From positions 115,384,001 through 115,444,000 of the forward strand of contig NC_086107.1 in NCBI RefSeq assembly GCF_963921235.1: DNA of 60,000 nucleotides, given 5' to 3'. Source of the DNA: Mobula hypostoma (lineage: Eukaryota). The position numbers and the translations under genes are program-made. Positions within the stretch are counted from its first letter, which is position 1. Every line of letters begins with the position of its first letter. Shown piece by piece: positions 20,033-44,944 of the stretch. The notes under the pieces were generated by a model, which was not told the origin of the DNA, made no database searches, and saw nothing but the letters and a program-made list of their open reading frames with translations.

Positions 20033-20669
20033 TAGGGGAGGGGACGGGGTTAAGAAGATGCCAAAGAGGTTCACCAGGTGAATTAGAGGGTGTATAGACA
20101 GAGCAGACAGCTGGTGACATTTTCCCCCGGGTGCAAACACTAGAGTGCTGCTCTTTCAGATGAGAGGGGTAAGTTCAAAGGAGATTTGCGGGGCAAGTTT
20201 TCTTCTACACGGAGAGCAGCGGGTGGAATGTGCTGCCGAAGGGGTGCTGCAGGCCGATCTGAAAGAAGCTGTTAGTCCAAAACACGGGTGTATACAGTGG
20301 AGGGATCGAGACAATGTGTAAGCGAGTGGGATGGGTTGGCACGAGGAATTCTGCAGATGCTGGAATTTCAAGCAACACACATCAAAGTTGCTGGTGAACG
20401 CAGCAGGCCAGGCAGCATCTCGGGCTGCTGCGTTCACCAGCAACTTTTATGTGTGTTTGGGATGTGTTGAGTTGAATGTTCCTAATGACCGGCTTGATTA
20501 GTTGAACACAAGATGGTAGGCGGAAGGGCGTGTTTCTCTGCTTTTCGCCACACTCCTCCACAGCCCCGACCCCCCACACACCCCTCCCCCATGGCCCGGC
20601 ATCCTGACGCACGCGCATTTGTTCACCGCCAGTGTAACTCCGACACCCAGTGTCCGTCACGTGGATTCA

Positions 20670-20889
20670 TTAGAGAACCGGCGGCTTGGCGGCCGCGTCC
20701 TGCTCCTCGTAGGCCGAGTTGGCGTAGGTGTAACCGAGGTGCACAGAGGGTTTGTAGTAGTCGATGTTCCGGACGGGCGGTAAGTATGGGACCATATAGG
20801 AATCCCATCGGTGGCCCTCGGGCACCAGGCTATGCAGCGGGTACATGTGGAAGCGATCGGGGTGTGCCCGTAGCCAATCTTCCCAGATC
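20670..20889 (-). CDS. Tyrosinase-like gene, coding exon 4 (terminal): (K)IWEDWLRAHPDRFHMYPLHSLVPEGHRWDSYMVPYLPPVRNIDYYKPSVHLGYTYANSAYEEQDAAAKPPVL*
   Basis: Acceptor ttcctctgccgcaag; phase 2 fits exon 3; homologous to TYR exon 4 (IFEQWLRRH...GH..SYMVPF.P..RN...LGY.Y); ends TAATGA. Confidence 0.9.
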
Positions 20890-21463
20890 CTTGCGGCAGA
20901 GGAAACAGCGATCAGGGAGGAAAAGTTTTTGTCTCCTTGTCAATCCCTGAGATCCACCGTATCCCAACTCCTCCTCCTCGACCCTCGTGATCCATTCGTC
21001 TCCCTCCTCCTCTTTGCCCCCGTGATTCACCATTCTGTCTCCTCGTCCACCCCCATGCTCAACCATCATCACTCCTCCTCATCCCCCCATGTTCCACCTG
21101 TCTCCCTCCTCCTCGTCCCCCCCGTAATTGACCCATTTCCCTCGTCCCCCCGTGATCCACCCTTCTCCTGCCTCCTTGTTGCCCCCGTGATCCACCCCCT
21201 TCCTCTTCGTCCGCCGCCACCCACCCGCTCCTCCATGGCCCTCCCGTGAAACACTGATCTCCCTCTACGTCCCTCCTGTGATCTACCCGCCTCCTCTACC
21301 TCCCCCCTCGTGAGTCACTGTCTCCCTCCTCCTCATGCCTCTGAGTTCTATCCGAACCCCTCCTTTCCATCGCGCTTCCTCGGGATCCCGTGATTAGTCT
21401 ACTGGGCAGGGAAGGTAACGCTAGCAACTGCTGAGGTCACTGGCACAGGCAATGGCATCTTAC

Positions 21464-21605
21464 TTGTCGATGAAGGCATGGTGGAGAAGGAAGATGGGGT
21501 CGTTTGAGGCCGCGGCCACCTTGGAGATCGTGCCGTTGAGATAGATGTGAACTAGGTTGTGCAAAGTGCGACCCCTGGACCCAGAACGGCTGGGTTTCTG
21601 GTATC
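21464..21605 (-). CDS. Tyrosinase-like gene, exon 3 (CuB site): [46 protein letters not shown]
   Basis: cag/gtaag boundaries; HxxxH...NDPIFLLHH CuB motif. Confidence 0.95.
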
Positions 21606-21679
21606 CTGAAAGGTGACAGAGATCTGAGAGTCGTTGGCAATACAAAGATCCTGTAAGCGTGTTATGGGAAGGCGCAGAG

Positions 21680-22260
21680 GGAGATTCACTTTGTCTGACC
21701 CCGGGAGTGTGTGATGGGACGGTGTGGAGGGAGCTTCACTCTGTGTCAGACCCTTGTGTTGGGATGGAGTGGAGGGAATTTCACTCTGTGTCTGACCCCG
21801 GGAGTGTGTGATGGGACGGTGTGGAGGGAGTTTCACTCTGTGTCTGACCCCGGGAGTGTGTGATGGGACGGTGCAGAGGGAGATTCACTCTGTTTCTGAC
21901 CCCGGGAGTGTGTGATGGGATGGTGTGGAGGGAGTTTCACTCTGTGTCTGACCCCGGGAGTGTGTGATGGGACGGTGTGGAGGGAATTTCACTCTGTGTC
22001 TGACCCCGGGAGTGTGTGATGGGACGGTGTGGAGGGAGTTTCACACTGTGTCTGACCCCTGGAGTGTGTGATGGGACGGTGTGGAGGGAGCTTCACTCTG
22101 TGTCTGACCCCGGGAGTGTGTGATTGGACGGTGCGGAGGGAGATTCACTGTGTCTGACCCTGGGAGTGTGTGATGGAACGGTGTGGAGGGAGATTCACTC
22201 TGTGTCTGACCCCGGGAGTGTGTGATGGGATGGTGCGGAGGGACATTCACTCTGTGTCAG
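21680..22260. repeat. 52-bp minisatellite (cactctgtgtctgaccccgggagtgtgtgatgggacggtgtggagggagatt), about 11 copies
   Basis: Tandem units fill most of tyrosinase-like intron 2. Confidence 0.95.
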
Positions 22261-22290
22261 ACCGTGTGCGGGGTAATGCGCTCTCTGCAC

Positions 22291-22510
22291 CTTCCAGCAC
22301 GTTGCGGAAGCTGGAGATGGCGAACTGGTTGTAGGGATAGCCATCGTAGTTCTGTAGACTCAGGGCGTTGGACACATCGCGGGCGGTGGGCAGACGCGGG
22401 GCTCGCGGGTTAGCCCCTGGCCGGCGCCTTAGCAGATGGGTCTGTCGAGTGGGCTGGAGGCAGATGCTGTCCATGGATGCCTCTGTGTCTCCGTCGTAGG
22501 TGCACACCGT
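22291..22510 (-). CDS. Tyrosinase-like gene, exon 2: TVCTYDG...RRRPGANPRAPRLPTARDV...SSFRNVLEG
   Basis: cag/gtgcag boundaries, phase 0 to 1; homologous to TYR exon 2 (PRLP...FRNTLEG). Confidence 0.93.
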
Positions 22511-22513
22511 CTG

Positions 22514-23060
22514 TAGGGGGAGAGGAGTGGGAGAGAGAGGGTGTGGAAATGTGAGATGGAGGGGTTGGGAGGGTGATGGAGAGGTGGGGCGAATGAAAGG
22601 GTGTGAGTGATATGGAGGGAAAGAGATAAAAGGTGAGGAGGGAGGGAACAAGTGGGAGGGTGAGGGAGAGTGGAAGGAAAGGGGAAGAGAGCGGAGTGAA
22701 TGAGAGAGGGGGTGATGGAGAGGGATAGGATGAGAGAGGGGGTGGATGAGAGAGGGGGTGATGGAGAGGGGTGATGGAGAGGGGGGAGGATGAGAGAAGG
22801 GGGTGGATGAGGGGGGGTGGATGAGAGGGGAGGGTGGATGAGAGAGGGGGTGGATGAGAGAGGGGGAGGATAAGAGAGGGGGGGTGGATAAGAGAGGGGG
22901 GTAGATGAGAGAGGGGGGTGGATGAGAGGGGGAGGATGAGGGGGGTGGATGAGAGAGGGGGGTGGATGAGATTCGGGTGAATGAGAAGGGTTGATGGAGA
23001 AGGAAGGGGAGGAGGAGAAGGGAGAGAGTGGGCATGGGGAGGAAGGAGGAGGGAGGAGAG
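22514..23060. repeat. Purine-rich (ggatgagagagggggt-like) degenerate repeat
   Basis: Direct inspection. Confidence 0.85.
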
Positions 23061-23874
23061 AGGCGTGAGCAAGGGGATACAGTGAGCAAGGATATGGAAG
23101 AGGGATGAGTGGAGAACAAAGTTACTGTTAATCGGATATGCCGGGGGAATCGAGAAATAAGGCGTACTCCTGTTGTCCCCTATTTGCTCACATCATAGTC
23201 ACAGTCAAAGTCATACTTTATTGATCCCGAGGGAAATTGGGTTTCGTTACAGTTGCACCAACCAAGAATAGAGTATAAATATACCAATATAAAACCATAA
23301 ATAATTAAATAGTAATATGTAAATTATGCCAGGAAACATCCTCGGCATTTGGTCCATACTTTCCTATCCACGTACCTGTCCGAGTTAAATGTGAATGTAC
23401 CTGTCTCAACCACTTCATCTGGCCTCCCAACCACTGAGCACATCTACAGGAAGAAGGTACAGAAGCCTCAGGACTCACACCGGGAACAGTTACTACCCCT
23501 CAACCATCAGGGTCTTGAACAAAATTGAATAACTTCACTCAACTTGCTTTCTCCTTTATTGAAATGTTTTCACAACCAATCGACTCACTGTCAAGGACTC
23601 TTATCCCATGTTCTCAATATTTATTGCTTATCTCTTTATTATACTTAATATTACTCTTTTTGTAATTGCACAGTTTATAGTCTTCTGCACTTTGAATGCC
23701 CTAGATGGCCGGTCTTTCATTGATTCTATTATGGTTGTTATTCTATAGATTTATGGAGTATGCCCACAAGAAAATGAATCTCGGGATGGTATATGGTGAC
23801 ATATATGTACTTTGATAATAAAATTAACTTCGAACTTTGATAGCACGTTCCATATACAGAGCACCCTCTGGGTA

Positions 23875-25590
23875 CAAATCTGTCCTTATTAAACATTCTC
23901 CTCTCACCTTAAACCCGTGTCCTCTGGTTATTGATAGAAAAAGACTGTGCGCATTCATCCTGTCTGTGCCCCTCATGATTTTATACACATCTGTAAGGTC
24001 ACCCCTCAGTCTCCTACCCTGCAAAGAATAAAGTCTGAACTTTGCCAAACTCTCTGTAACTCAGTCCATCGAGTCCTGGCAACATCCTCATAAATCTCCT
24101 CTACCATTTTGCTGTCAATGGGGGGCGTTGGTATGGACCCAAATGCAAGACTCAGACACTGAAGTACTAGGAACAGGACTAGGCGTGACAAGGCAGCAAG
24201 GGAAGAGGGGAAGAAATGACGCTGGACATTGACACAGGCCCTGGACGAGACAAGGATTCAGAGCCTGGACTAGGACATGGACAAAAAACACGGAATCCGG
24301 ACAAGGATTATGGAACAAGGAGCCTGGACTAGTGACACGGAACTCCAGAACCAGAGCCGGGACAAGGACCCAGAAGCCGGGTCTTGGTTGGGACTCAGAA
24401 CCTGGGTCTAGGCTAGGACTCGTGACTAGGATCTTGGCAAGGACAGGACGTGGCTACAGAACAGGATGTGGAACTCCAGCACAGGTCGAGGCACATGGTC
24501 AGGACGAGAACACAAAGCCTTGACTTGGACAGGACGAGGTTCTTGGACGTGACTTGGACAGAACGAGAGACTCCTGGACAGTTCTAGGGAACCACTGCAC
24601 CGGGCTGGGCGAGGCACATGGACAGGACGAGAACACGAAGTCTTGACTTGGTCGAGGGAGACAGGAACGCAGAGCTTTGGTAATCTTGAGAGACAGGAAC
24701 ATGGAACACAGAGCCGGGACCCCTCCTTGGAAACAGGACGTAGGGCCGGGACTCATACACGGAACATTGAGAGACAGATCTCCACTCAAGGTAGCGGCAA
24801 ATGGCCGGAACTACCCAGCGAAGGCGAAGGCACAAGGAGACGGTTCCCAACACAAGGTAGCGGCAAACACCCGGACCTACCTAGCAACGGCGTGGACACA
24901 GATAGTTCCCAACTCGAGGTAGCGGCAAACGGTTGGACCTACCTAGAAACGGCGTGGACACAGAGACAGTTCCTAACTCAAGGAAGCGGCAAACGGCCGG
25001 ACCTACCTAGTGAAGGCGTGGACACAGAGACAGTTCAAAACAACGATAGACAGTTCCTTATCTTGCTCCAGCGGTTTAACTTGACAACGGTACAGGCGAG
25101 GATTACAGGCGAGGCGAGGCTTCAGGCGAGGCTAGGTTTCAGACACTAGTTGCAGGACAAGGCTTCAGGAGGAAGAGTCCGAGAAGGGATTCAGACAGGG
25201 GATATGGACGTGAACAATCCAGCAGCCAAGCCCTGGTCTCCGGAGGTATTTATGTGTCTGCCCAAACGAGAATCATGTGCCTTAATTAGAGCACCCAGCA
25301 GAACAATGGAAAACCGGAAATCCTGGAATACAGATCGAAGGACTGGACCGTGAACCAGAATGCGGATTTCATGGACCGGACCATGACATTTCCAGATTAA
25401 TGGCATCTTTTCTGTCGCAGGGCGACCAAAACTGAACAACAGCTGAGTGTGACCTGTACAACATCTTATCAACTGCATCATAACGTCCCAATTCCTGTAA
25501 TCAGTGGCCTGACTGATGAAGGTCAGTGTGACAAAGAGCACCTTCACCACCCTATCTTACCGTGGCGTTACTTTCATGTAAACCATATCC
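23875..25590 (-). mobile_element. CR1 fragment split by an LTR insertion
   Basis: RRLRGDLTDVYKIMRG (about 23900-24050); CR1 sequence resumes at 25389. Confidence 0.75.
24113..25388 (-). mobile_element. Solo LTR-like element (1276 bp) with internal tandem repeats
   Basis: Termini TGTCAATGG...CCATGACA; 5-bp TSD tttgc/tttcc (one mismatch); inserted in CR1; about 60-bp internal repeats at 24786-25035. Confidence 0.75.
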
Positions 25591-25619
25591 CTGAACCCTT
25601 TGTACCAATTCATTCAAAG

Positions 25620-26323
25620 TGTGTGCAATCACTCGGATAATAGATTTGCAAACGCAACTAATTTTGAAATTGGGAAAGAGAATGGTGTACGACTGGCAAC
25701 AAAAAACTCAGCTAGAAGTACGTACGTACTACGATGATAGCGCTGCCTAAAAATGCCACGGCAATATTGTGATTTCAACTTCATCCTTTCTGAGAGAGTT
25801 AAGATAGGTTTAATTAAGGCATCCACTCATATGTTGAACTTCGTGCTTAGAAACGCAGAATGTGAAGAACTGTCAATTCTTGTTGACACCGTTGGAACAT
25901 TTCAAGCCTCTGGTGCTGGCTGCGAACGTGAATTCAGTCTTACGAATTCAATCAAATGGCAAATCCAGACACAGACCAGAAGTGGACCATTTGGACGATC
26001 TAATGAGGATTAAGACATATCTTTCATCCGGACCCAAAGTTACTCCGAATATTGTTTATCGACAACGGATTTGCAATAAAGACCGACCAGTATAAAGTTT
26101 ATGAAACGTGAAAGCTTCTCTTTTGTAATGTATTTCATTACACCTTTCAATTAATACATGAAATTAAAACTATCTGATATTTAAAAGTTCGTTGTAAATA
26201 ATCAGAGTGTGCGTGTTACAAAGCAGTAATAAAGCGCCTCCGCGTTTTTCAGGTCGTGTAAATGTTTCCTTGGCAGAACAATGGCTGATCCTCACAGCTG
26301 TTTAAAAAACGGAGGCAACGCTG
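25620..26323 (+). mobile_element. Degenerate hAT transposon 3' end (dimerisation domain plus TIR)
   Basis: TFQASGAGCEREFSLTNSIK/KSRHRPEVDHLDDLMRIK resembles the hAT CERxFSxM..K..RNRL....L..LMRI motif; ends gcaacgctg (CAG-type TIR). Confidence 0.75.
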
Positions 26324-26407
26324 CTTTCCAGGGACCTGCCCTGGTTTGTCTTCCCGAAGTTCATTATCTCAATTCACTTGTAACCCGCTTTAATTAGAAT
26401 GGCTTCG

Positions 26408-26640
26408 GCGTTTAAAGGGAGGGGTAAATGGGGCCCCGGTGGGTTTAAAGGGAACGGGAAGCAGGATCCCAATCCGTTTAATGGGGAGCGGGGTACGGAG
26501 TCCTGATAGGTTTAAAGGGAGCGGCAAACGGAATCTCGGTGGATTTAACGGGAGCGGGAAATGCGATCGCATTGGGTTTAATGAAAGCGGGGAAAGGGGT
26601 CCAGTTGAGTTTAATGGGAGTGGGGAACGGGCCCAGGGGA
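26408..26640. repeat. Degenerate ~30-bp repeat built on gtttaa(a/t)gggagcggg
   Basis: About 7 recurrences. Confidence 0.65.
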
Positions 26641-27158
26641 TCACACAGACGGGATGGCACATGGGAGACTCATTGACACTCAGAGGGGTGTAGGGGAGGA
26701 AGGGCTCTTGGAGACGGGAAGGGGCGTAAGGGAGGGAGGGCGTGACAGAGGGGTGTGGATAGTGTATATTGATTGATAGGGTTGCGGCTGTTTTGTGTAT
26801 GTTGTGTAAATAGGATCTGCACAAGGTTGGGGACTGAGGGATTTGGCAGGTCACCGTGTCCCTGACCAACTGCTGACCGTAGGTCCGAGGGCTAACATCC
26901 CGTGACTCTGCTCGTCCGCAGGCAGCTAGTGAGATGTGACCGCGATAAACCTCTCCTTGCCCTTTACCCCTCTCCGTCTCCATTAGTTCTTCCTTTCCAC
27001 TACACCCCCTTCCCGATCGGCAACCCCCGCCCTTCTTCCTCGTCTGCGCCAATCCCTCCCCGTCTCCATGACCCTCTCCCTCCCCTACATTCCTCCCCCT
27101 CTCTGTCACAGCACTCCGTCACCCTTTCCGGCCTCCGCGACCCTCTCCGTCCTCTCAC

Positions 27159-28085
27159 CTTCCAGCCGGCGAGGAGGGCGGGCGCCCGTATCTTGCCGCT
27201 GTCGTCACTGCGCCCCATTTGGCTGCCCCGACAGACATCACAACCCGAGGTCCGGGTCCAGTTCCAGTAAGGCAGGCTGAACTCTTCGTCCCCCGACAGC
27301 AGCCTGAGCTCCTCCTCGAGGAACGCCAGGTAGCGCCGGTGCCAGGGGGTGAAGGCCGGACCCCCGTGGGCAAAGTTGGCGCCAGAGATCGCCCCCTCCC
27401 TCACACCCCCACCAGCTTTCCCACCCAGGGGCTTGGTGGCCAGGTAATGCATCCAGGTGATAAGGTCGTAGACTGTGGCGTCTCGGAAGGCCAGACCCCC
27501 TGGCAGCGAAGGGTCAGACGGGGAGGAAGGGGAGAAGGGGAATAGGGTGAATGAGAAATGGGACGAGGAAGCAAGTGGAGGGGAGCGGTCGGCAGATGGG
27601 GTGGCCAGCATGACGTATCGGCCGCTGACGGTGCCCTTCGCCTTTTTCAGCATCCAGAGGAGGGCCCGCCACTGCTGCCGGCTGAGCTGATGGACCCCCT
27701 TCCTCACCCGGACCGCCCAGCGCTCGCAGAAGGGACCCCGCCAGCCTCCCGCGCACCTTCCGCAATCGAATCCCGAGAAATGCGGGCGGCATGCACAGAC
27801 GTGGGCAAAGAAAGCGCTGGGCCAGGCCAGCCGGAAATCCCAGGGCGAGGGGAGCGCGGAGGGGGGTGTGGAAGGAGGAGGGGGGCGGAGGAGCATGCAG
27901 GACCCCCGGCCGCTGCGCTCCCCGCAGGGAGACCCATCCCCTGGCCAGTGGGGACAGCAGACACGCGAGTTCAGGGCGGAGAGCGAGGCACAGGGACGGG
28001 GGAACTGGGCGAGAGGGGTGGGGGGCCGGGAGAGAAGCAGGAAGAGTGGGAGGAGGATGAGGGCGAGGGGGCTCGACTCCTGCAT
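27159..28085 (-). CDS. Tyrosinase-like gene, coding exon 1 (signal peptide, Cys-rich domain, CuA site)
   Basis: MQESSPLALILLPLFLLL..AQFPRPC..CCP..GRGSC..CAC..FSGFDCGRC; WMHY; FAHGGPAFTPWHRRYL; LPYWNW..CDVC; donor AAG|gtgag at the TYR intron-1 position. The start ATG is less certain because tgcag could be an acceptor. Confidence 0.92.
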
Positions 28086-28316
28086 TTGTGAAGCGGGGAG
28101 GGAGGGATGAGGGACTAGAATGAGAGAGGAGGAAGGAGAGAGGAGGGGATGGAGCGATTGAAAGAGAGGTAGAGGGGTAGAGGGACAGAGGGAGGGAGAG
28201 GAGCTACGAGGGTGGAGGCGGGACAAGCAGCGAGGGGGAAGAGGGACGGAGCGAGAGAACGAGAGAAGGAGAGCGAGGCAGTCACCAGTCGGGAGGGTAG
28301 GGAGGAGATGGAGGGG

Positions 28317-28322
28317 TTTATA
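28317..28322 (-). promoter_or_regulatory. Candidate TATA box (TATAAA) for the tyrosinase-like gene
   Basis: About 230 bp upstream of the ATG on the minus strand. Confidence 0.35.
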
Positions 28323-28403
28323 AAGGAGTGGGTGTTGGTTTGGCTGAGGGTTCATACGCGTGAAATAGGGCACCGAGCCAGGACAGGATGTGTGAGTGAT
28401 GTG

Positions 28404-28447
28404 GAGAGAGAGAGAGAGAGCGAGAGAGAGAGAGAGAGAGAGAGAGG

Positions 28448-28495
<48 letters not shown>

Positions 28496-28503
28496 GCGAG
28501 GGC

Positions 28504-28560
<57 letters not shown>

Positions 28561-28643
28561 GAAGGCGAGAGAGAGAGAGAGAAAGAGGGAGAGAGAGAGG
28601 GAGGGCGAGAGAGAGAGAGCGAGAGAGCGAGAGAGAGAGAGAA

Positions 28644-28677
<34 letters not shown>

Positions 28678-28701
28678 CGAGAGAGAGAGAGAGAGAGAGA
28701 G
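28404..28701. repeat. (GA)n microsatellite
   Basis: Direct inspection. Confidence 0.97.
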
Positions 28702-28729
28702 ATGGAGGAGCTAGAATCCGCGGTCCGCC

Positions 28730-28860
28730 CTCTAAATACACACAAATACGGAGTTCCTTTCTAAATACAGACTCGGATCCGGGAGCCCCGCTAAATACAG
28801 ACACGAATCCGGTGACCCCTCTAAATACAGATACGGGGTTCCCCTCTAAATACAGGCGCT
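28730..28860. repeat. ~29-bp tandem repeat with a ctaaataca core, 5 copies
   Basis: Direct inspection. Confidence 0.7.
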
Positions 28861-29260
28861 CATAGCACCCACACGGGACCCGCCTATAAATATTCACGCA
28901 CATGGGAACTCATTAAAGATATGTAAAGACACCCACAACGACCAACCCCCCCCCCAAATAAAGGCATGCACATGCCCCTCCAAATAAAGACACACACTCC
29001 CTCTAAATGAAAGGATCTCTCACTGATCCATTGTCTCTCTCTCTGATTCAGACACCCCACGGTCGAGGTACGGCACCCCTGCAGCACTAGAAGATCCCAA
29101 GAGGCGGCAATCTCCCAGTGGGCACTGGGCTGGACCACCAGCCCATGCCAGCCACTGTTCGGTAATCATTGCTTCCCCCCGCCCCCAACAACCCATTCCA
29201 CACCTGCCTCACTTCGCCCAACCAACACAAACGTAACCACCCCGTACATTCGGGAGTAGA

Positions 29261-29996
29261 GGATTGTGGGGCTTGTAGTCCCAAGGGCCAGGATAATCGA
29301 TGGAGTTTTTTAGCCTCTACCATGTCGCATGTTGGAAGGCAAGGGATTATGGGTATTGTAGTCAATATTGGCTTAGCAACAACAGCAGAGATGGGCGATC
29401 GGACGACACGGCTCACAATGGTCTGGCTGCATCGCCAGTCCGGTTCAAGAGTAGCGAAAAGCACCGTCCAACAGAGGGGAGCGCTCCATCTGTTTGAGAA
29501 ACAGAGGGCTATGAGTCCGCAACAGCTGCGGAGAGGGAAGCAAGGACTACACTTCCCTCAGTGCCACCCGTCTGGTGGCATCGCCTGCACAGTTATTCAG
29601 AAGGTTTGTAGTCTCTGTTGGCAGGTCAACAAGGGCGGACATGGCATTTCGGACTACTTTTCCACAATAGCAACAGAGCTGCGGCTCTATAAATCCAATT
29701 CAAACTATCTATGCTCGACTCAATGGGCGCGGTAAAGATGGTGAGGAACGCATTTCTAAGGGAGCGCTCGGTTGGCAGCGGATTGTGGGTCATGTAGTCA
29801 TTACGCAAAACAACAGCAGAGGTAACGCCAGACTACACATCCCATGTTGCCGAGCTAGAGCCACTGCGGTTGCGCAACCGTCGGACCGTCGTTGGCAAAT
29901 AGGACGAGAGGTATGCTGGGGATTATAGTCCATTGACGCCGGAAACGTGGGTAGCCCCGCACGCTGGCATAACACGGACTACAAATTCCGGCATGC
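29261..29996. promoter_or_regulatory. Cluster of ZNF143/THAP11-type (GACTACAnnTCCCAnnATGC-like) motifs in a CpG-rich divergent promoter
   Basis: Copies at 29261-29280(-), 29344-29363(-), 29545-29564(+), 29652-29670(+, weak), 29780-29799(-), 29831-29850(+), 29911-29930(-), 29977-29996(+). Confidence 0.75.
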
Positions 29997-30047
29997 CCAG
30001 CGCCGTTACTCGTCGCCGCCGGAGCGGCCTGAGGCAAAGAGGGAAAG

Positions 30048-30159
30048 ATGTCCGGACGGCCCAAGCCGCGCACCGCCGCCAACGCCGAGCGTGGTACCGT
30101 GTCGGTCAACGAGCGAGTCCTACGCGAGTGCCACTCTCTCTACAGCGAGCCCGACACCG
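30048..30159 (+). CDS. EHD/dynamin-like membrane P-loop NTPase, exon 1: MSGRPKPRTAANAERGTVSVNERVLRECHSLYSEPDT
   Basis: ATG (aagATGt) in a CpG island; donor G|gtgagt; phase 1 joins exon 2. Confidence 0.85.
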
Positions 30160-30619
30160 GTGAGTGAGGGTGGGAGCTGCCGGAGAGCGATTCAGCCGGC
30201 GCCGGACCGGATCCTGAGAAACGTAAAACTCGGACCGGTACCTGAACTGAAGACCTGCGGCTCCCGATCCTGCGGGTACTCCAACGCCGGGCTTTCGGAA
30301 ATACAGCTGCGTCGTATCTTGTCTAAAACATCTTGCTCCCACTCTCTCCACTAGTGAGGATTTAAAGCCTCCCATTATGGGATGTTTTCACCTTAAAACT
30401 CGGGGTATTTTCCCCATACAAACTACAGTGGACGCAGAAGTGATCCCTGCAGCTTGATACTGTTCACCAGTCTCCAAAGCACACTTCCACTACATCCCTC
30501 GAATTCTATATAAAACTCTGGTCAGGCCGCATCTGGAATATTATGGTCATTTCTGCTCACCCCATTACAGGAAGGGTAGGGGGGCTTTGGAGAGGGCGCA
30601 GAGGAGGTTCACCAGGATG

Positions 30620-31084
30620 ACTGCTCACTGCTGTAGCCCCTCCACTTTAATATGTGCCTTCAGAGATGCTCTTCTGCACACCACTGTTGTAACACATGGT
30701 TATTTTGAGTTACTGTCCCCTTCCTGACAGCTTGAACCAGTCTGGCCATTCTCCTCTGACCTCTCTCGTTAACAAAGTGTTTTCACCCACAGAACTGCTG
30801 CTCACTGGGTGTTTTTTTTTGTTTTTCACACCATTCTCTGTAAACTCTAGAGACTTGCGCGTGAAAATCCCAGGGGATCAGCAGTTTCTGAGATGCTCAA
30901 ACCACCCCATCTGGCACCGACAGTCATTCCACAGTGTGAAAGTCATTTAGATCACATTTCTTCCCTCATTCTGAGCAACAACTGAATCCCTTGACCACGT
31001 CTGCGTGGAGTTGCTGCCACACAATTGGCTGATTAAATTTGCATTAATGGACAGGCATACCTTAATAAAGTGGCCACTGATTGT
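30620..31084. mobile_element. Tc1/mariner-derived non-autonomous remnant
   Basis: Ends taataaagtggccactga.tgta, a Tc1-like TIR followed by TA. Confidence 0.55.
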
Positions 31085-31089
31085 ATATC

Positions 31090-33180
31090 ATAGAGTCATA
31101 CAACACAGAAGAAAGCCATTTGGCTTAACTGGTCCCTGCCAACATCAATTCCCATCTGCCCACGTTTGGCCCATATCCCTCCAAGCCTTCCCTATCCACG
31201 TACCTGTCTGAGTGTCTTTTAAACATTGGTAATGTACCAGCCTCAACTACTTCCTCTGGCAGCTTGTTCCATATATAGACCACCATCTGGATGAAATTGT
31301 TACCCCAGAGGGTCCCTATTAAATCTCCCTCCATTTTCACCTTAAATGAGTGCCCTATATTTCTTGATTCCCCAACCCTGGGGAAAAGACTCTGCATATT
31401 CACCCTAACTGTGTAGGTTCAGTTGCTCGGCATTCAAGATGAGCAAGTAAATTAGGCTAGACATTGGCTTTGTGGGAGAAGCCACAGAGAGAGGTGGTAG
31501 CAGGTTGCTTCTCTGACTGCAGGTCTGTAACCAGTGGACCCGACGCGATCGGTGCTGGGTCCTTTGTTGTTTGACATCTATATCAACTATTTGAGTGATA
31601 ATGTGGTTAACTGGATCAGCAAATTTGGGGATGACACTAGGATTGGAGGTGTAGTGGACAGCGAGTAAGATTATCATGGCTTACAGAGCGATTTGCATCA
31701 GCTAGAAAAATGGGCTGAAAATCTTCAGATGGAATTTAATGCAAACAAGTGCAAGGTTTTGCCCTTCAGTGGGACCAACCAGGGTAGGTCTTACACAGTG
31801 AACGATAGGGCACCGAGGAGTGTGGTAGAACAAATGTCCATAATTAGTTGAAAGTGGTTCGTAAGGAAAGGTTTTGGCACATTGGCCTTCATAAATGAAT
31901 GTATTGAGTACAAGAGGAGGGATGTTATGTAGAAGTTGAATAAGGCGTTGGTGAGGCCTAATTTGGAGTATTGTGTGAAGTTTTGGTCACCTACCTGGAG
32001 GAGAGATGTAAAGAAGGTTGAAAGAGTGAAGAGAAAATTTACAAGGATGTCATCGGGTCTGAAGAACCTGAGTTATTAGAAAAGATTAGGACTATATTCC
32101 TTAGAACATCGAAAGTTGGGAGGGATTCGATAGGAGGTATATAAAATGGAGGGGTAGATAGGGGAAATGCAAGTAGGCTTCTTCCACTTGCATTTGGTGG
32201 AACTGCAACCAGAGGTCATGGGTTAAGGGTGAAAGGTGTAAAATTTAAGGGGAACATGAGGGGAAGCTTCTTCACTCAGGGTCGTGAGAGTGTGGAACGA
32301 GCTGTCGGCACAAGCTCGATTTCATCGTTTAAGAGAAGTTTAGATAGGTATATGGATGGTCGGGGTGTGGAGGGCTATGGTCCCAGTGCGGGTCGATGGG
32401 AGTAGGCAGTTTAAATGGTTTTGCCATGGACTAGATGGGCTGAAGAGCCTGTTTCTGTGCTGTACTCTATGAGATCATTCCCTCGGTCTTTCATGCTCCA
32501 GAGAATAAAGTACCAACCTGGCCAACCTCTCTCCATAACTCGAGTTCCTCGAGTCCTGGCCATATCCTTATCAATCCTCTCAGCACTCTTTCCAACTCAA
32601 TGACATCTTTTCTATGGCAGGGCAACCAAAACTGAACACGATACTCTAAGTGGAGCCTCAGTAATGTCTTGTGAATCTGAATGATGAAGGTCAATGCCGA
32701 GCACCTCCTTCACCACCGTGTCTACCCGTGGCTCTCCTTTCAGGGAAGCATGCACTGTACCTGTACCCCTCAGTCCCTCTGTTCTACAATACTTCCCAGG
32801 ACCCTGACATTCACTGTGACTTGTCCTGAAATGCAACACCTCACACTTATCGGAATTAAACTGCATTTGCCATTCCTCGGCCCACTTTCCCAGCTGTTTG
32901 AGATCCCCCTGTCAACCCTGATAACTATCCTTGCTGTCAACCACACGGCCGATTTCAGTGTTGTCTGCATATTTACTAACCACTTCTAGGTACTTGCTTA
33001 TCTGAACTGTTGATTCAGATGACAATGGCAATGGGCCCAGCACTGTCCTCTCGGGGACACCACTAATCACGATCCTCAAGTCCGAGAAACAGCCTCCCAC
33101 CGAGTTCCTTCCTGGGTCCCTCAGTTCTGCAACAGTCCTTGGGGCCTGACCGTTCACTGTGAAGTTCCTGCTCGGATTAG
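31090..33180. mobile_element. Cluster of CR1 fragments in both orientations (31410-32470 +; flanks -)
   Basis: WNKLPEEVVEAG; LLRLHLEYRVQFW; QFNSDKCEVLHF. Confidence 0.85.
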
Positions 33181-34419
33181 AATCAGAACCAGGTTCATTT
33201 CTGCCGGCATATGAAATGTGTTGTTCTGCGGCAGCAGTACGGTGCAAAATATTAAAAGTCACTGTGAGTTACAAACATTGGCAGTGCAAAAGGTGAATAG
33301 TGTTCGTGGGTTCAGGGGCCATTCAGAACTGCAATGGCAGAGGGAAGAAGCTCTTCCTGAATCAAGGACTGTGGGTCTCTCAGCTCTAATGTATCTGTCT
33401 CTACTGTCACCCCTGCAGGGTGATACACACATCCACCCACTCTCTGTGTAATAAAACGTCCCTATTGTATCTGATTTTACATTCATCCATGGCAGGGCGA
33501 TCCGCACACACCCACCACTCTCTGTGTAATAAAATGTCTCTACCGTCACCCCTGCAGGGTGATGCACACACCCACCACTCTCTGTGTAATTTTTTTTAAA
33601 ACTACTTCTGACATCCCCCCCAATGCTTTTCTCCGTTCGCCTTAAAATTATGCCCCCTTAATAGCTGTTTCTGCTCTGTGAAAAAGACACTGGTTATCCA
33701 CTCAATTTATCTTATACACTTCTATCAAGTCACCGCCCATCCTCCTTCACTCCTCTTCGAGAGAAAAGCCTGAACTTGCTCACCCTCTCCTCTTAAAGTA
33801 CCCTTCTCTACTCCAGACGGCATCCTCTCTAAAGCTTACTGTAATGAGGAGACTAGAACTGATGAAGGGTCTAGGCCAGAAACGTCGACTCTTTAATCCT
33901 CTCCATGGAGGCTGTCTCACCTGCTGAGAATTTTATGTGTGTTATTCTTAAACCACTGCAGAGGAGGGCAGAAGGGATTTGGCTAATATGGCACCATCTT
34001 TGTACTATTTGGAGACTCTCAACAAGGGAAAAGTTTTATCTGCAGGCTAAGTTGGCCCAGATTCCGTGTGAGCCAGCCTCCTGGACCGAGGCTGGCACAC
34101 AGTGTCGCTGTACAAACAACTGGCAACAGACCGGAACCAACACAATCAGTCAGAACAGCTACACCTTGTTCCCTGATAGTCAGCACTGATAATGTTGCAG
34201 AGCATATTATCCAGTTCCCAACCCCTTCCAACACGAGGAGCAGGGGAGCGAATCGTCCTGGTAGGGTGTGTAGTTGGCAGAGATGGCCTTCTCTGAATCC
34301 ACAGGAGAGGGACGGCTTCACCAAGTACGGCTTGTAGTAGAGGGAGCAGGGGTCACAAAGGTGGGAGAGAAGCAGGAGGCGGGGGTGTCGTGGAGGCAGC
34401 GAGGATGTAGCGGAGGGTA

Positions 34420-35012
34420 TGGCAGAGGTGTTGGAGACAGGGAGGGGTGGAGGGGAGGAGGTGCTGGAGACGGGGAGTGGAGGGGAGGAAAGGGGTATAG
34501 GGTAGGGCAGAGGTGCAGGAGATGGAGGAGTGAAGGGGAGGGAGGGGGTATAGGGTGGGGCAGAGGTGTTGGAGACGGGGGTGGAGGGGAGGGAGGTGTA
34601 GGGTGGAGCAGAGGTGTTGGAGACGGGGAGGGTTGGAGGGGAGGGAGGGGGTGTAGGGTGGAGCGGAGGTGCAGGAGACGGGGGGTGGAGGGGAGGGATG
34701 GGGTGTAGGGTGGGGCAGAGGTGTTGGAGAAGGGGAGGGAGGGGGTGTAGTGTGGGGCAGAGGTGTTGGAGACGTGGGGCTGGAGGGGAGGGAGGGGGTG
34801 TAGGGTGGGGCAGAGGTGTTGGAGACGTGGGGGTGGAGGGGAGGGAGGGGGTGTAGGGTGGGGCAGAGGTGTTGGAGACGGGGAGGGAGGGTGTGTGGGG
34901 TGGGGCAGAGGTATTGGAGATGTGGGGGTGTGGGGTGGGGCAGAGGTATTGGAGATGTGGGGGTGGAGGGGAGGGAGGGGGTGTGGGGTGGGGCAGAGGT
35001 GCTGGAGACGGG
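34420..35012. repeat. G-rich minisatellite (gggtggggcagaggtgttggagacg...) with G-quadruplex potential
   Basis: Direct inspection. Confidence 0.9.
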
Positions 35013-35063
35013 GAGTGATGTCGGAGGGTGAACAAGCTGACAGTTTACATCCCTGTCCCCCAG

Positions 35064-35175
35064 GACTAATTGACATCATGTCCCGTCTGGGGATGCAGCT
35101 CACTCCCCCCCGGAAGAAGATGACGGTGATGTTGATGGGGAATCACTCGGCTGGAAAAAGCTCGTTCATCAACTG
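35064..35175 (+). CDS. EHD/dynamin-like NTPase, exon 2 (P-loop GNHSAGKSSFINW)
   Basis: cag/gtaac boundaries; Walker A motif. Confidence 0.95.
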
Positions 35176-35821
35176 GTAACCCTGCACCCTGGCCCATCGT
35201 CCCACATGCCCTAGCCCTCCTGCTCCTCCTCTCCACCTCTCCCTCTGTCTCCAGCACCTTCCGTCTCTCCTCCCCCACCACTCCACCCGTATGCCTTTGC
35301 CCCTCCTTCCCCCTTTCCCTTCGTCTCCTTCCCCCCCTACTCCCCGTGTCTCCCTCCCCGCCATCTCCTCCCCTGTCCCGCGGAGAGTGCTGAACACCTC
35401 GGTGAGGGTGGGTTCTGTGTGGGCAGAGGGGAGGAGCGACAGGCTAAAGGAGGGAGGAAAAGTGAAGGGGAAGTTCAGAGGGAACGGTGAGTGAGTAGGG
35501 GCTGAGTGGAGTGATTCGGGGATGTTGAAGATGTAGGAAGATGGAGGGAGTATTGAGACAGTAGGAGGGAGAGGGCAGGGTCGGGGAGGAAAGGGGGAGT
35601 GGTCAGTGAGGAGGGAGGGGACAGAGAGGGAGGAGGAGGGAGGACTGATGAATTGAGAGGGGTAGTGACAAAGGACAGTGAGGAAGGGGCGGAGGAAAGA
35701 GGGTGAGGACGAGGGCTAATGAAGAAAGGGGTAGTGAGGAGGGAAGCAGAGCAAGGGTACATATTGAAGAGCGAGAAGCGAGTGTGAGGAGGGAAGGAAA
35801 GCAAGGGTGCAGTGAGGTGGC

Positions 35822-36405
35822 AGGGAGGGAGGGGTAGAGAGACCGAGGGGTTGGACGTAGTCGAGGGATGGAGGAGGGAGGGTGGTGAACTTTGGAGAGG
35901 AAGGGCAGTGAGGGGAGGCAGGGAGGGAGGGGTAGAGAGAACGAGGGGTTGGACGTCGAGGGATGGAGGAGGGAGGGTGGTGAAGTTTGGAGAGGAAGGG
36001 CAGTGAGGGGAGGCAGGGAGGGAGGGGTAGAGAGAACGAGGGCTTGGACGTAGTCGAGGGATGGAGGAGGGAGGGTGGTGAAGTTTGGAGAGGAAGGGCA
36101 GTGAGGGGAGGCAGGGAGGGAGGGGTAGAGAGAACGAGGGGTTGGACGTCGAGGGATGGAGGAGGGAGGGTGGTGAAGTTTGGAGAGGAAGGGCAGTGAG
36201 GGGAGGCAGGGAGGGAGGGGTAGAGAGAACGAGGGGTTGGATGTAGTCGAGGGATGGAGGAGGGAGGGTGGTGAAGTTTGGAGAGGAAGGGCAGTGAGGG
36301 GAGGCAGGGAGGGAGGGGTAGAGAGAACGAGGGCTTGGACGTAGTCGAGGGATGGAGGAGGGAGGGTGGTGAAGTTTGGAGAGGAAGGGCAGTGAGGGGA
36401 GGCAG
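35822..36405. repeat. ~95-bp purine-rich tandem repeat, about 6 copies
   Basis: Direct inspection. Confidence 0.9.
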
Positions 36406-36678
36406 GAGAACGAGGAGAGAGTGGCGGGCTGGAATGTTGAGGCAAGGGTTAGTGAGGCGGTATAGGGGGCAGTGAAGTGGGAGGGATGGAGGGAAGGGTT
36501 TCCTTTCCTCAGCTGTATATGTCCCCTATCCCAGGTCTGCCCCTTCCCCACCCCCAACTCCCCCAGGTTCATCCAGTTCCTCACTCACTGCCACCTCCCT
36601 CACCCCCATCCCCTCTCCTCTACGCTCTCCCCCAAGTTCATCCCGTATCTTACTGTCAGCCCCCTTCCTCTCCCCCAG

Positions 36679-36772
36679 GTACGTGGAGGAACACATCCAA
36701 CGCACAGGCGTGGCCATCGAGACTCAGGGCTTTACTTTCGTCACCAGTGGCCGCAAGAGGGAATCACTGACT
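36679..36772 (+). CDS. EHD/dynamin-like NTPase, exon 3: YVEEHIQRTGVAIETQGFTFVTSGRKRESLT
   Basis: cag/gtgag boundaries; phases fit. Confidence 0.93.
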
Positions 36773-36828
36773 GTGAGTTGACCCAGAAGCATAATCACAG
36801 GAAACCTCACCTACCCCTTCCCAGACCT

Positions 36829-37394
36829 TCACTCTGTGTCTGACCCCAGAGGGTGTGATGGGACGGTGTGAAGGGAGATTCACTCTGTGTGTCTGACCCC
36901 GGGAGTGTGTGATGGGACGGTGTGGAGGGAGATTCACTCTGTGTCTGACCCCGGGAGTGTGTGATGGGACGGTGTGGAGGGAGATTCACTCTGTGTCTGA
37001 CCCCGGGAGTGTGTGATGGGACGGTGTGGAGGGAGCTTCACTCTGTGTCTGACCCCGGGAGTGTGTGATGGGACGGTGTGGAGGGAGATTCACTCTGTGT
37101 CTGACCCCGGGTGTGTGTGATGGGACGGTGTGGAGGGAGCTTCACTCTGTGTCTGACCCCGGGAGTGTGTGATGGGACGGTGTGGAGGGAGATTCACTCT
37201 GTGTCTGACCCCGGGAGTGTGTGATGGGACGGTGTGGAGGGAGATTCACTCTGTGTCTGACCCCGGGAGTGTGATGGGACGGTGTGGAGGGAGATTCACT
37301 CTGTGTCTGACCCCGGGAGTGTGTGATGGGACGGTGTGGAGGGAGATTCACTCTGTGTCTGACCCCGGGAGTGTGATGGGACGGTGTGGAGGGA
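36829..37394. repeat. 52-bp minisatellite (same family as 21680-22260)
   Basis: Direct inspection. Confidence 0.95.
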
Positions 37395-37496
37395 TCTCCC
37401 AGGTGGTCATAGGCTGGTTCTGTAGATTTGGGACGTCAGGAAGTGTGTGTAAAAGGGTTCCTTTCACCCAGACATCTTTCTTCGTCTGTCCACCAG

Positions 37497-37551
37497 GGGA
37501 ATGCAACGCTCCATCTGTATCCACACTTCAAACCACTGCAGAACATTGAAG
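37497..37551 (+). CDS. EHD/dynamin-like NTPase, exon 4: GNATLHLYPHFKPLQNIE
   Basis: cag/gtagg boundaries; phases fit. Confidence 0.92.
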
Positions 37552-37660
37552 GTAGGAATCACACAATATCCCCTGCTTTCACTGTCACCTGCAGACTGCC
37601 TTCCTGTTGGGGCTAGAAATGATGTACAGTCTTCAAATAATACTGTGTAGAGGACTGTTA

Positions 37661-38303
37661 CTCTGTGTCTGACCCCGGGAGTGTGTGATGGGATGGTGTG
37701 GAGGGAGTTTCTCTCTGTGTCTGACCCTGGGAGTGTGTGATGGGCGGTGTGGAGGGAGCTTCACTCTGTGTCTGATCCCGGGAGTGTGTGATGGGACAGT
37801 GTGGAGGGAGATTCACTCTGTGTCTGATCCCCGGAGTGTGTGATGGGACGGTGTGGAGGGAGATTCACTCTGTGTCTGACCCTGGGAGTGTGTGATGGGC
37901 GGTGTGGAGGGAGCTTCACTCTGTGTCTGATCCCGGGAGTGTGTGATGGGACAGTGTGGAGGGAGCTTCACTCTGTGTCTGATCCCTGGAGTGTGTGATG
38001 GGACAGTGATGAGGGAGATTCACTCTCTGTCTGACCCCGGGAGTGTGTGATGGGAGGGTGTGGAGGGAGATTCACTCTGTGTCTGACCCCGGGAGTGTGT
38101 GATGGGACGGTGTGGAGGGAGATTCACTCTGTGTCTGACCCCGGGAGTGTGTGATGGGACGGTGTGGAGGGAGATTCACTCTGTGTCTGACCCCGGGAGT
38201 GTGTGATGGGACGGTGTGGAGGGAGATTCACTCTGTGTCTGACCTCGGGAGTATGTGATGGGACGGTGTGGATGGAGATTCATTCCGTGTCTGACCCCGG
38301 GAG
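37661..38303. repeat. 52-bp minisatellite (third array)
   Basis: Direct inspection. Confidence 0.95.
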
Positions 38304-38387
38304 CACTTTATGCCTGACCGTGCGAGTGTATGACGGGATATTGTGAAGGGAGCCTCACCTCCTTCAGCCTCTCTCCACCTCTGGCAG

Positions 38388-38528
38388 GAGTGTCGGAGTA
38401 CCTCAGCACAGAGATCTCCACTTCGAAGCAGAAGAAGTTCAGCCTGGTCACGTTCATCGATACTCCAGGACTGGTCGATGGCGACATGAAGTACCCATTC
38501 GATGTGGACCAAGCTATCCTTTGGCTGG
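38388..38528 (+). CDS. EHD/dynamin-like NTPase, exon 5 (G3 FIDTPGL)
   Basis: VSEYLSTEISTSKQKKFSLVTFIDTPGLVDGDMKYPFDVDQAILWL; cag/gtgag boundaries. Confidence 0.95.
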
Positions 38529-38944
38529 GTGAGTGTCCAAGGCACCACAGGATGCTTCCCACCATGACTCCTCCTCTCCGTGAACCCCTCCCTAGTCTAC
38601 ATGGCTCCCCATCTCTGTGATGCCCTTACCTTCCTATCTCTGACCTCCTCCCTCCCCTACACCACTACAGGAGGGCTGCCTCAAGAAGGCAACGTCTGCC
38701 GTCAAAATCCCCACCATCTGGGCCACGCCCTCTTCCTGCACCTCCCATCGGGCGGGAGGTACAGAAGCCTGACGTCCCACACCACCAGGTTCAGGAACAG
38801 AGACTTCCCTTCAACCGTTCGGTTCTTGAACCAACAGCACAATCCAAGTCACTGTCCCCGAACGGAAACACCCTGACCACTTTGCACTAAAATAGACTTT
38901 GGTTTTAATTCTAAATGTGCTCTTTCTTGTAAGAATTGTCCACA

Positions 38945-39460
38945 GTTGGAGTATTTTGAGCAGTTTTGGGCTTCTTATCTAAGAAAGGATGTGTTGGCAT
39001 TGGAAAGGATTCAGAGGTGGTTCAGGGGAATTGTCCCAGAATGAAAGGGTCAATGTATATGGAGTGTTTGATGGCTCTGGACCTGTATTCACTGGTGTTT
39101 AGAAGGTTAAGTGAGGATTTGAACCTATCAGATATTGGAAGGCGTAGATAGAGAGGATATAGTGGGGGGAGTCCAGGACCACAGGGCACACCCTCAGAAC
39201 ACAAGAACATCCATTTACAACAGAGATGAGGAATTTTTCAGCCAGAGAGTATTAAATCCTCATTGAAAGTTCATTGATGGCTGTGGAGGCCAAGTCATTG
39301 AGTATATTTAAAGCAGAGGTTGAGATGTTCCTGATTAGTAGGGGCATCAAAGGTTACGGGGAGAAGGCAGAAGAAAGGGGTTGAGAGAGATAATAAATCA
39401 GCCATGATGGAGAGACTCGGTGAGCCGATTGGCCTAATTCTGCCCCTACATCTTATGGTC
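38945..39460 (+). mobile_element. CR1 3' fragment
   Basis: ttggagtatt..gagcagttttggg...; tcttatggtc tail. Confidence 0.8.
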
Positions 39461-39994
39461 CATTGCCCAATCACTGACGTTTATCCACGAGTTGAATCTC
39501 CGCTGGTTAGTTGATCCATGTTCTGCTTCAAGAAACCCTCTTGGACACATCCTATAGAGTTTGCCGCAGCTAAATTTTGCGTGTGAGGAGTTCCCAGCAC
39601 AAAATACTTGAATGAGAGTTTATAACACTGCAGTGTAACCTCTCAGCTCTTGAACAAACTGAGAGCATCGAGAGGAGAGAATTTTAGGAGAATTCCAACA
39701 CAAACCATGGCTGCCAATGACCATAGATTAATTACCTTTCTTTCCTGTCTTCCTCTCCCTCTTTCCTTTGCCTCCCCCATCCTCTCTTCCCCCTGCCTCC
39801 CCCACCCTCTCTTCCCCCTGCCTTCCCCATCCTCTCTCTCCACCGCCTCCCTCACACTGTCCCACCCAACATCCTCCTCCCTCTGTCCCCATCCAATACT
39901 CCCTCCCTTCCCATCTGAACTCCTTCTCTCCATCCATCCCTCGCCATCTTTCCCCGTCTTCCTCTTATCCCCTCACCAATCCCCCCACCCTCAG

Positions 39995-40155
39995 GGCAAC
40001 TGTGTGAGCTGGTGTTCGTTTTCTTCGACCCCATGGGTCAGGCACTGTGCAAGCGGACACTGAACATTGTGGAGCGGCTCAATGAGACCCAGGGGGACAA
40101 AATCCGATTCTACCTCAGCAAGGCCGACGAAGCAGGGATCGAGACCGACCGGCAG
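39995..40155 (+). CDS. EHD/dynamin-like NTPase, exon 6 (G4-like LSKAD)
   Basis: QLCELVFVFFDPMGQALCKRTLNIVERLNETQGDKIRFYLSKADEAGIETDRQ. Confidence 0.95.
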
Positions 40156-40350
40156 GTGGGGACGTGTGGCCCGAACCTTCCTCGACCGTCCGTCCTGTAG
40201 CTTCATACTTCCTGTTCCATTGGTTCTCCCAATGGCTCTGGGTAACCACAGTCCTTTCTGTTTCTGCTCCCCTCTCCTCCCTTTCGCACCCTTCCCTCCC
40301 CTCCCTCACCTTCCCCGCCCTTTCCACCTCACCCTTCCTCCCACGTACAG

Positions 40351-40449
40351 CGAGTGATGATGCAGATCGTCCAGGAACTGTGCAAACGGCCCGGTCTGAA
40401 CAAATGTGGCTTCGACATGCCCACCATCTACATCCCCCAATCCAACAAG
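40351..40449 (+). CDS. EHD/dynamin-like NTPase, exon 7: RVMMQIVQELCKRPGLNKCGFDMPTIYIPQSNK
   Basis: cag/gtgag boundaries; 99 nt, phase 0 to 0. Confidence 0.93.
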
Positions 40450-41012: not shown

Positions 41013-41300
41013 GGGCAGCACAGTAGCTTAGCAGTTAGTGTTACACTTTATAGTGCCGGCAATCGTGATCGGGGTTCAGTTCCCAACACAGTTTGCACGT
41101 TCTTCCCACGGCCGTGTGGGTGCCCTCCTCCTGCTGCAGTTTCCTCACTCCAGAGCCGTGCAGTGACGTTTTCTACATTGTGGATGCTATGTTGGTGCCA
41201 GAAGTGTGGTAACACTTGCAAACTGCCCCAGCACATCCCTTGGATCGTTGACACACACTACACATTTCGCTGTACATGTGACAAGTAAAGCTGATCTTGA
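41013..41300 (+). mobile_element. tRNA-derived V-SINE-like element
   Basis: A-box-like tagcttagcagttag, B-box-like ggttcagttcc, then a tttgcacgttcttcc core. Confidence 0.6.
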
Positions 41301-44940: not shown

Positions 44941-44944
44941 TCGC

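Follow-up and report, generated by a model that had tools for sequence, protein, structure and literature searches.

A tyrosinase-family gene without a membrane anchor in the ray Mobula hypostoma, predicted to encode a secreted phenoloxidase of an old vertebrate lineage

The transmembrane segment and tail of tyrosinase (TYR) are established as the signals that sort the enzyme to the melanosome, and the TYR gene is usually found in synteny with GRM5 and NOX4. Vertebrates are credited with three tyrosinase-family genes, TYR, TYRP1 and DCT, all encoding melanosomal membrane proteins (PMC12294924, PMC3658974, PMC3334994), with five, seven and eight coding exons, respectively (PMC12294924). A further gene, tyrp3, was presented from butterflyfish and clownfish as new and reef-fish-specific; it has four exons, shares about 40% identity with tyr1/tyr2 and lies between mrpl16 and txnl4b (PMC10468729). 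A 'tyr-like' lineage of amphioxus and hemichordates is stated to have been lost in vertebrates (PMC3334994), and among tyrosinase subclasses, the Cys-rich gamma enzymes are defined as bearing a transmembrane segment and the alpha enzymes as secreted (PMC3658974). Here we analyse a tyrosinase-type gene on the minus strand of a 60,000-nucleotide stretch of Mobula hypostoma DNA (assembly GCF_963921235.1, contig NC_086107.1, positions 115,384,001 to 115,444,000; hereafter the window), at window positions 20670 to 28085. Its product lacks a membrane anchor and, as argued below, may be an extracellular phenoloxidase. The gene is already annotated as 'tyrosinase-like', yet apparently undescribed as a lineage: within the literature covered, which excluded subscription and older sources, neither an account of a vertebrate tyrosinase clade without an anchor nor an oviducal transcriptome came up, and the available parts of PMC8371935, PMC11368843, PMC6472079, PMC9999432 and PMC12641477 hold nothing on the ray gene.

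The gene is a real and intact member of the tyrosinase family. It consists of four exons, separated by introns that are all of the GT..AG type and of phases 0, 1 and 2, and the spliced coding sequence (CDS) of 1509 nt with a single stop yields 502 amino acids, identical to XP_062917594 'tyrosinase-like [Mobula hypostoma]' (row P0001 of our protein set). The GC content at third codon positions is 0.79. The protein matches the Pfam Tyrosinase family (PF00264) with E 1.3e-39, and an atlas search with it returned tyrosinase clusters only. The preliminary description of this DNA, made from the letters alone, had given four phase-compatible exons and about 502 residues, which the splice sites and the identity with the RefSeq model confirm; the motifs it quoted are at their positions. 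The features are as follows.

27159..28085, minus strand: exon 1 (927 nt, codons 1-309), encoding the leader, the Cys-rich subdomain and CuA, with a phase 0 end at the TYR-type exon 1 boundary (TYR-type fragment P0275 ends at the same residue)
28008..28085, minus strand: predicted signal peptide, residues 1-26, ahead of the conserved QFP start (from hydropathy only, with a non-canonical Pro at -3)
27498..27596, minus strand: Ser/Pro/Phe-rich insertion specific to stingrays, about residues 164-196, absent in skate and sharks; a low-confidence loop (predicted local distance difference test, pLDDT, <50 at 170-188)
27339..27449, minus strand: CuA histidines H213, H240 and H249 (TYR H180, H202 and H211 by alignment)
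22291..22510, minus strand: exon 2 (220 nt, phase 1 donor), encoding two Cys and E382 (TYR E345)
21464..21605, minus strand: exon 3 (142 nt, phase 2 donor), encoding CuB H398, H402 and H425 together with H424, N399, V412 and the N406 sequon; A415 stands in place of TYR S380
20670..20889, minus strand: coding part of exon 4 (220 nt including TAA), with the stop 17 codons past the GYTY motif; no anchor and no KDEL-type or dileucine-type tail

By its residues and predicted fold, the protein is a type-3 copper, tyrosinase-family member with three histidines in each of CuA and CuB. After a hydrophobic leader of 26 residues (judged by hydropathy), all 14 of its cysteines, ten of them N-terminal, align with those of TYR and TYRP1. 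The six metal histidines (H213/H240/H249 in CuA and H398/H402/H425 in CuB, H424 adjoining H425) align with the TYR ligands, the equivalents of TYR E345, N364, V377 and H389 are retained, and two N-glycosylation sequons are present. An AlphaFold2 (AF2) model built on a 148-sequence alignment reached pLDDT 87 and a predicted template modelling score (pTM) of 0.88; its best Foldseek match was the TYRP1 luminal domain (5m8l/9ey8; template modelling score 0.85 of target, E 4e-38), and Bacillus tyrosinase was matched with E 3e-19. Two active-site positions depart from TYR. In each of the eight elasmobranch orthologues checked, Ala stands at the equivalent of S380, a residue whose loss may shift the enzyme toward catechols (catecholase), and the F347 equivalent is Tyr in rays and skate. 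Gating and active-site roles of these TYR residues are given in PMC12940576, while the available part of PMC5855855 contains no confirmation of a rule for HH versus LH in CuB or for S380. Since the luminal domain of human TYR, with the transmembrane segment removed, is soluble and active (PMC3879332), loss of the anchor need not impair catalysis. From the residues listed we infer copper binding and phenol or catechol oxidase activity.

The absence of an anchor is documented in several ways. Past CuB the maximal 19-residue hydropathy is -0.19, compared with about 1.8-3.2 in anchored TYR/TYRP proteins among the rows listed. With a simple donor matrix, scores of -7.5, -4.7 and -6.3 were obtained for three GT sites within the 90 nt that precede the stop, against +6.5, +0.3 and +4.4 for the real donors. 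When nine anchor tails of TYR, TYRP1, DCT and percomorph proteins were compared with the window by tblastn, the best E value was 0.012, and 0.099 in the 20 kb visible downstream of the gene. The stop lies at the same position in three other stingrays and within one residue of it in a skate and two sharks, and the peptide that follows GYTY is conserved from rays to sharks. There is neither a KDEL-type end nor a hydrophobic glycosylphosphatidylinositol (GPI) tail, so for a protein with a leader and no transmembrane segment default secretion is the expected route. On the strength of the missing donor, of a stop that shifts by no more than one residue between the rays, the skate and the two sharks, and of the conserved peptide ahead of it, we hold with high confidence that the ray protein is a paralogue without an anchor.

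Phylogenetic analyses set the gene apart from all three canonical ones. Hypanus and Rhinoraja each possess an orthologue of the ray protein and, on another contig, an anchored TYR as well. The ray protein groups with skate and shark orthologues (100/100) in a tree of 22 rows, and TYR orthology was rejected when it was forced together with ray TYR (p 6.8e-6 in the approximately unbiased test, p-AU); this hypothesis came from the preliminary description itself, and two earlier trees had preceded the p-AU run. In an ectodomain-only tree, from which tails were removed so that the anchor could not shape the topology, proteins of sharks and rays, of bowfin and percomorphs, and of amphibians form one clade (100/100) to which TYR, TYRP1 and DCT do not belong. 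That this clade is sister to TYR was not rejected in the same tree (p-AU 0.19, root not fixed). Membership in TYRP1 or DCT is ruled out by the tree, by the HH rather than LH of CuB, and by four coding exons rather than seven or eight. The TYR-type fragments P0275, P0133 and P0302 stop exactly where the three introns of the ray gene fall. We infer that the lineage arose when a TYR-like gene was duplicated early, before sharks and bony fish split; the root not being fixed, deeper origins are possible. Thus the preliminary description was right to see a separate and divergent family member, which in the tree with TYR, TYRP1 and DCT does not nest as the TYR orthologue. Its TYR-like intron positions and CuB HH are borne out by the fragment boundaries and the alignment, and its stop in exon 4 with a poor donor and no recognisable transmembrane exon agrees with donor scores, tblastn and hydropathy.

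Orthologues were found in four stingrays, one skate and at least seven sharks, and the clade further includes numerous proteins of frogs and salamanders (several in each species, frequently encoded on the same contig) as well as members in bowfin, tarpon and percomorphs. A total of 283 proteins, comprising paralogues and isoforms and therefore not independent, were screened for a transmembrane segment, 33 of which were dropped as C-terminally incomplete. None was present in the complete elasmobranch-type (9/9) and amphibian-type (81/81) records or in those of bowfin and tarpon, and one was present in 106 of the 115 TYR/TYRP/DCT/other records. Anchorless frog-type open reading frames (ORFs) of a full 443-447 amino acids occur on Logan contigs of 1.5-2.6 kb, which are most simply explained as spliced mRNA. 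The named matches included no member from amniotes, which argues weakly for loss, and only three tyrosinase-family genes are listed in a turtle survey (PMC12294924); loss of the lineage in amniotes is suggested. Narcine TYR was among the matches listed and a Narcine orthologue of the ray gene was not, which is uninformative, as several other annotated elasmobranchs were likewise missing.

The clade probably has a published branch. The Chaetodon and Amphiprion percula members fall inside it in the ectodomain-only tree, and the Amphiprion member is 40% identical to tyr; as they fit the description of tyrp3, the latter is probably the percomorph branch, matched here by description and not by the sequences of that paper. 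Neither mrpl16 nor txnl4b was recognised by exon scans of the window, in which no direct search with those proteins was made. Literature matches to a ball-python 'tyrp3' were discarded as a text artefact. The preliminary description had been correct about a separate, divergent and anchorless family member; it had missed the existing annotation, the transmembrane segment of many percomorph members and the probable publication as tyrp3.

How such an enzyme might work can be outlined from its sequence. The leader would direct the protein into the endoplasmic reticulum, where it would fold like the luminal domain of TYR or TYRP1 and, judged by the TYR-type active-site residues, would be loaded with copper rather than zinc. 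Having neither transmembrane segment nor sorting tail, it would leave the cell by default secretion or in secretory granules. Outside, it might oxidise dihydroxyphenylalanine (DOPA) or other catechols to o-quinones, which would polymerise or cross-link proteins of skin, mucus or wound surfaces and, in egg-laying sharks and skates, possibly of the oviducal secretion too. That the ray protein is a secreted and active phenoloxidase appears likely to us. With moderate confidence we favour the fuller proposal of a secreted, soluble two-copper phenol/catechol oxidase, belonging to an old, fourth lineage of tyrosinases in jawed vertebrates and likely to tan or melanise body-surface secretions.

The tissue evidence found for the clade comes from frog skin only. 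In a skin transcriptome of the coqui frog, 'TYR-LIKE' stood at 232 in the stressed population versus 52 in the native one (about 4.5-fold), alongside wound-healing genes (PMC12270160), and its UniProt identifier A0A6I8QAH5 corresponds to our row P0404, which lies inside the clade in the ectodomain-only tree. This result and the expansion in amphibians speak for action at surfaces (skin, mucus or wound) as the general role, and we consider it somewhat probable that surface secretion is the main role. RNA runs for the ray gene (four of 24 inspected) had depth almost only on a repeat at 20340-20420 and thus no bearing on expression. The query included a 52-bp array (21659-22263) and a SINE-like repeat (SINE, short interspersed element), which probably drive the small match shares; one contig from a relative spans the exon 4/intron 3 boundary unspliced, and a spliced ray transcript did not turn up.

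Several observations weigh against the proposed secreted enzyme. Of the 41 records in the teleost bin, among them bowfin and nine models from A. percula, 22 do have a transmembrane segment, and most of the anchorless models depart from anchored ones at the same residue; these are therefore probably read-through artefacts, and anchorlessness in a database is no proof on its own. The percomorph transmembrane segment resembles that of TYR (HHalign 77%, versus 16% for TYRP1 and 3% for controls), so the anchor may be ancestral and may have been lost more than once. In the stingrays, but not in skate and sharks, a Pro occupies position -3 relative to the usual cleavage site of the leader. The coqui identifier was assigned by best hit to a Xenopus protein, in a single small study on a different class. 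It could be argued that the anchorless ray protein is a gene-model artefact and that the real mRNA splices exon 4 to a distant transmembrane exon, as several teleost models do (A. percula anchorless versus A. ocellaris anchored, split at the same residue). The downstream view is limited to 20 kb, a distant exon 5 could lie beyond the 60-kb window, and neither AATAAA nor ATTAAA occurs within 3.2 kb of the stop. Against this stand the very poor donor candidates, the conserved stop and preceding peptide in the rays, the skate and two sharks, and the lack of a transmembrane segment in each of the 90 complete elasmobranch- or amphibian-type records; we consider such an artefact very unlikely. Even less credible is that the gene is a decaying remnant in stingrays. 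It is true that the stingray copy has evolved at about double the rate of its skate counterpart and carries low-complexity insertions, that two of the four stingray models skip core residues (P0004 of Hypanus lacks the first CuA His region, P0002 of M. birostris about 50 residues including several Cys) and that P0023 of Hemiscyllium has Gln at the first CuA His, the skipped or changed residues being either annotation errors or lineage-specific decay. However, the M. hypostoma and Hemitrygon copies are complete, retain every Cys and every metal His, have canonical splice sites and share 85% identity, and the gaps of the other stingray models may stem from assembly or annotation.

Two further explanations concern the role. 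In elasmobranchs, quinone tanning of the egg capsule might depend on this enzyme, which would then be the catechol oxidase of the oviducal gland, recruited to that task from a broader clade and under relaxed constraint in live-bearing stingrays. Stingrays, Mobula among them, are live-bearing and skates lay eggs. As relaxed selection in live-bearers would predict, Tajima tests found an excess of stingray over skate changes in the clade gene (59 vs 29, 70 vs 29 and 73 vs 30; p 1e-3 to 2e-5) and not in TYR (36 vs 29 and 35 vs 23; p 0.39 and 0.12). Moreover, among the elasmobranch family members retrieved, anchorless ones belong to this clade only, the Ala at TYR S380 in the eight orthologues would fit a catecholase, and for the little skate a catechol oxidase of the egg capsule has been reported (Koob & Cox 1988, via PMC4806620). 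On the other hand, literature searches found no oviducal expression data, the Mobula ORF is intact despite live-bearing, a second anchorless shark type (P0243 of Mustelus) could be the capsule enzyme instead, and the rate difference may reflect GC bias, the composition of the ray protein having been flagged in the tree run. The clade is also present and expanded in amphibians and present in bony fish; to our knowledge, frogs, salamanders, bowfin, tarpon and percomorphs make no tanned capsule. For this reason, and with tissue evidence from frog skin only, capsule tanning, which the preliminary description had offered as one testable role with melanisation of skin, mucus or wounds as alternatives, is not supported as the main role. 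We regard it as doubtful for the elasmobranch enzyme at large and as a plausible co-option beside the general role of the clade; surface and capsule roles are not mutually exclusive. Alternatively, the protein could reside in soluble form in the lumen of melanosomes or of other lysosome-related organelles, as a partner that aids ordinary pigmentation. Fold, Cys set and intron positions are those of TYR, sisterhood with TYR was not rejected, frog skin expression would fit pigment cells too, and a pigmentation role was suggested for tyrp3, without functional data, in the available part of PMC10468729. This is improbable in our judgement, as the ray protein lacks the segment and tail that sort TYR, and the tail of the anchored percomorph proteins, too, does not align over the TYR dileucine motif; the lack of an M-box core in the upstream interval is a weak further point. 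A secreted enzyme acting on surface secretions remains the reading that we prefer.

In the immediate surroundings of the gene, two further features were recorded.

28316..28322, minus strand: TATA-like element lying about 235 nt ahead of the ATG, seen directly and weak as a candidate promoter element
30048-48222, plus strand: head-to-head neighbour about 2 kb upstream, multi-exon, with a P-loop motif and weak Dynamin_N/MMR_HSR1 matches (E 0.03-0.05)

The neighbour has two hydrophobic candidate last exons (47322-47493 and 48099-48222) and looks like an uncharacterised GTPase of dynamin/EHD type, which might serve as a synteny marker; no gene was recognised in the 20 kb downstream of the tyrosinase-type gene. 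Of five M-box core (TCATGTG) matches in the window none lies in the interval to the next gene (28086-30047), a weak negative, and a scan for oestrogen response elements gave seven two-mismatch matches versus 4.2 expected, which is not above chance. Tandem arrays occupy parts of intron 2 (52-bp period, 21659-22263) and intron 1 (62-64 and 33 bp periods, 24770-25036 and 26410-26630), and the SINE-like repeat at 20340-20420, about 250 nt past the stop, is of very high copy number.

Other proteins encountered are worth recording. The anchored percomorph members P0043, P0136, P0139, P0405 and their relatives may be cell-surface rather than melanosomal enzymes. Divergent short, anchorless tyrosinase-like types occur in shark and amphibians (P0243 of Mustelus, P0249 from Logan, P0265, P0270, P0287, P0295, P0297 and P0416); in P0243, P0249 and P0295 the neighbours of CuB are altered (no HH, changed gate residue), suggesting other substrates. 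Axolotl (P0007/P0215/P0295) and Pseudophryne (P0236/P0287) give a hint of TYR and a tyrosinase-like gene on one chromosome arm, as both genes are recorded on contigs of equal length. P0018 of Chiloscyllium punctatum, a RefSeq 'tyrosinase', joins exons 1-2 of the clade gene to unrelated sequence, which we take to resemble a C2 domain, and is probably a mis-joined model. Finally, five JGI records (P0048, P0067, P0075, P0080 and P0090) are TYR-like proteins of about 602 amino acids in which thrombospondin-type repeats replace the anchor, and they are apparently secreted.

If the proposal is true, vertebrates also run an extracellular phenol oxidation of the kind usually credited to invertebrate tanning and immunity, by means of a fourth lineage as old as the split of sharks and bony fish and anchorless in sharks, rays and amphibians. 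The view of tyrp3 as a reef-fish innovation would then need correcting, and a naturally soluble vertebrate tyrosinase would be at hand for structural work; the structure searches made returned TYRP1 only and no solved vertebrate TYR. Frog epidermis contains a soluble pro-tyrosinase, characterised biochemically in the 1970s-80s, and we know of no gene for it or for the skate egg-capsule catechol oxidase. The lineage offers candidate genes for both. That it is the gene behind the two activities, as a secreted phenoloxidase system of jawed vertebrates apparently lost in amniotes and analogous to the tanning and wound-melanising enzymes of invertebrates, is a tentative idea that we think rather unlikely to hold in full.

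Compared with known systems, the ray protein would act in the manner of a soluble luminal domain of TYR and is closest in plan to TYR, with which it shares the leader, the Cys-rich subdomain, the 14 Cys, the six metal His, the HH of CuB, the equivalents of E345, N364 and V377 and the first three intron positions. It differs from TYR in its low identity (about 36-39%), its separate clade and locus, the absence of exon 5, transmembrane segment and dileucine tail, and in Ala and Tyr at the S380 and F347 equivalents, and rays own a separate TYR. With TYRP1 and DCT it has in common the fold, the disulfide set and a Tyr at the F347/Y362-type position; it differs from them in identity (32%), in CuB HH instead of LH, in Val instead of Thr/Pro at the gate, in four coding exons versus seven and eight, and in having no anchor. 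Whereas tyrp3 was published as reef-fish-specific, the clade described here spans sharks to amphibians, and many of its percomorph members are anchored. Relative to the gamma subclass, the ray protein has a leader (by hydropathy only) and the Cys-rich region but no C-terminal transmembrane segment; the amphioxus and hemichordate tyr-like proteins and the alpha-subclass tyrosinases are likewise non-canonical lineages of secreted or unassigned function. The skate capsule catechol oxidase and the frog epidermal pro-tyrosinase, compared here by description only, are extracellular or soluble vertebrate phenoloxidase activities.

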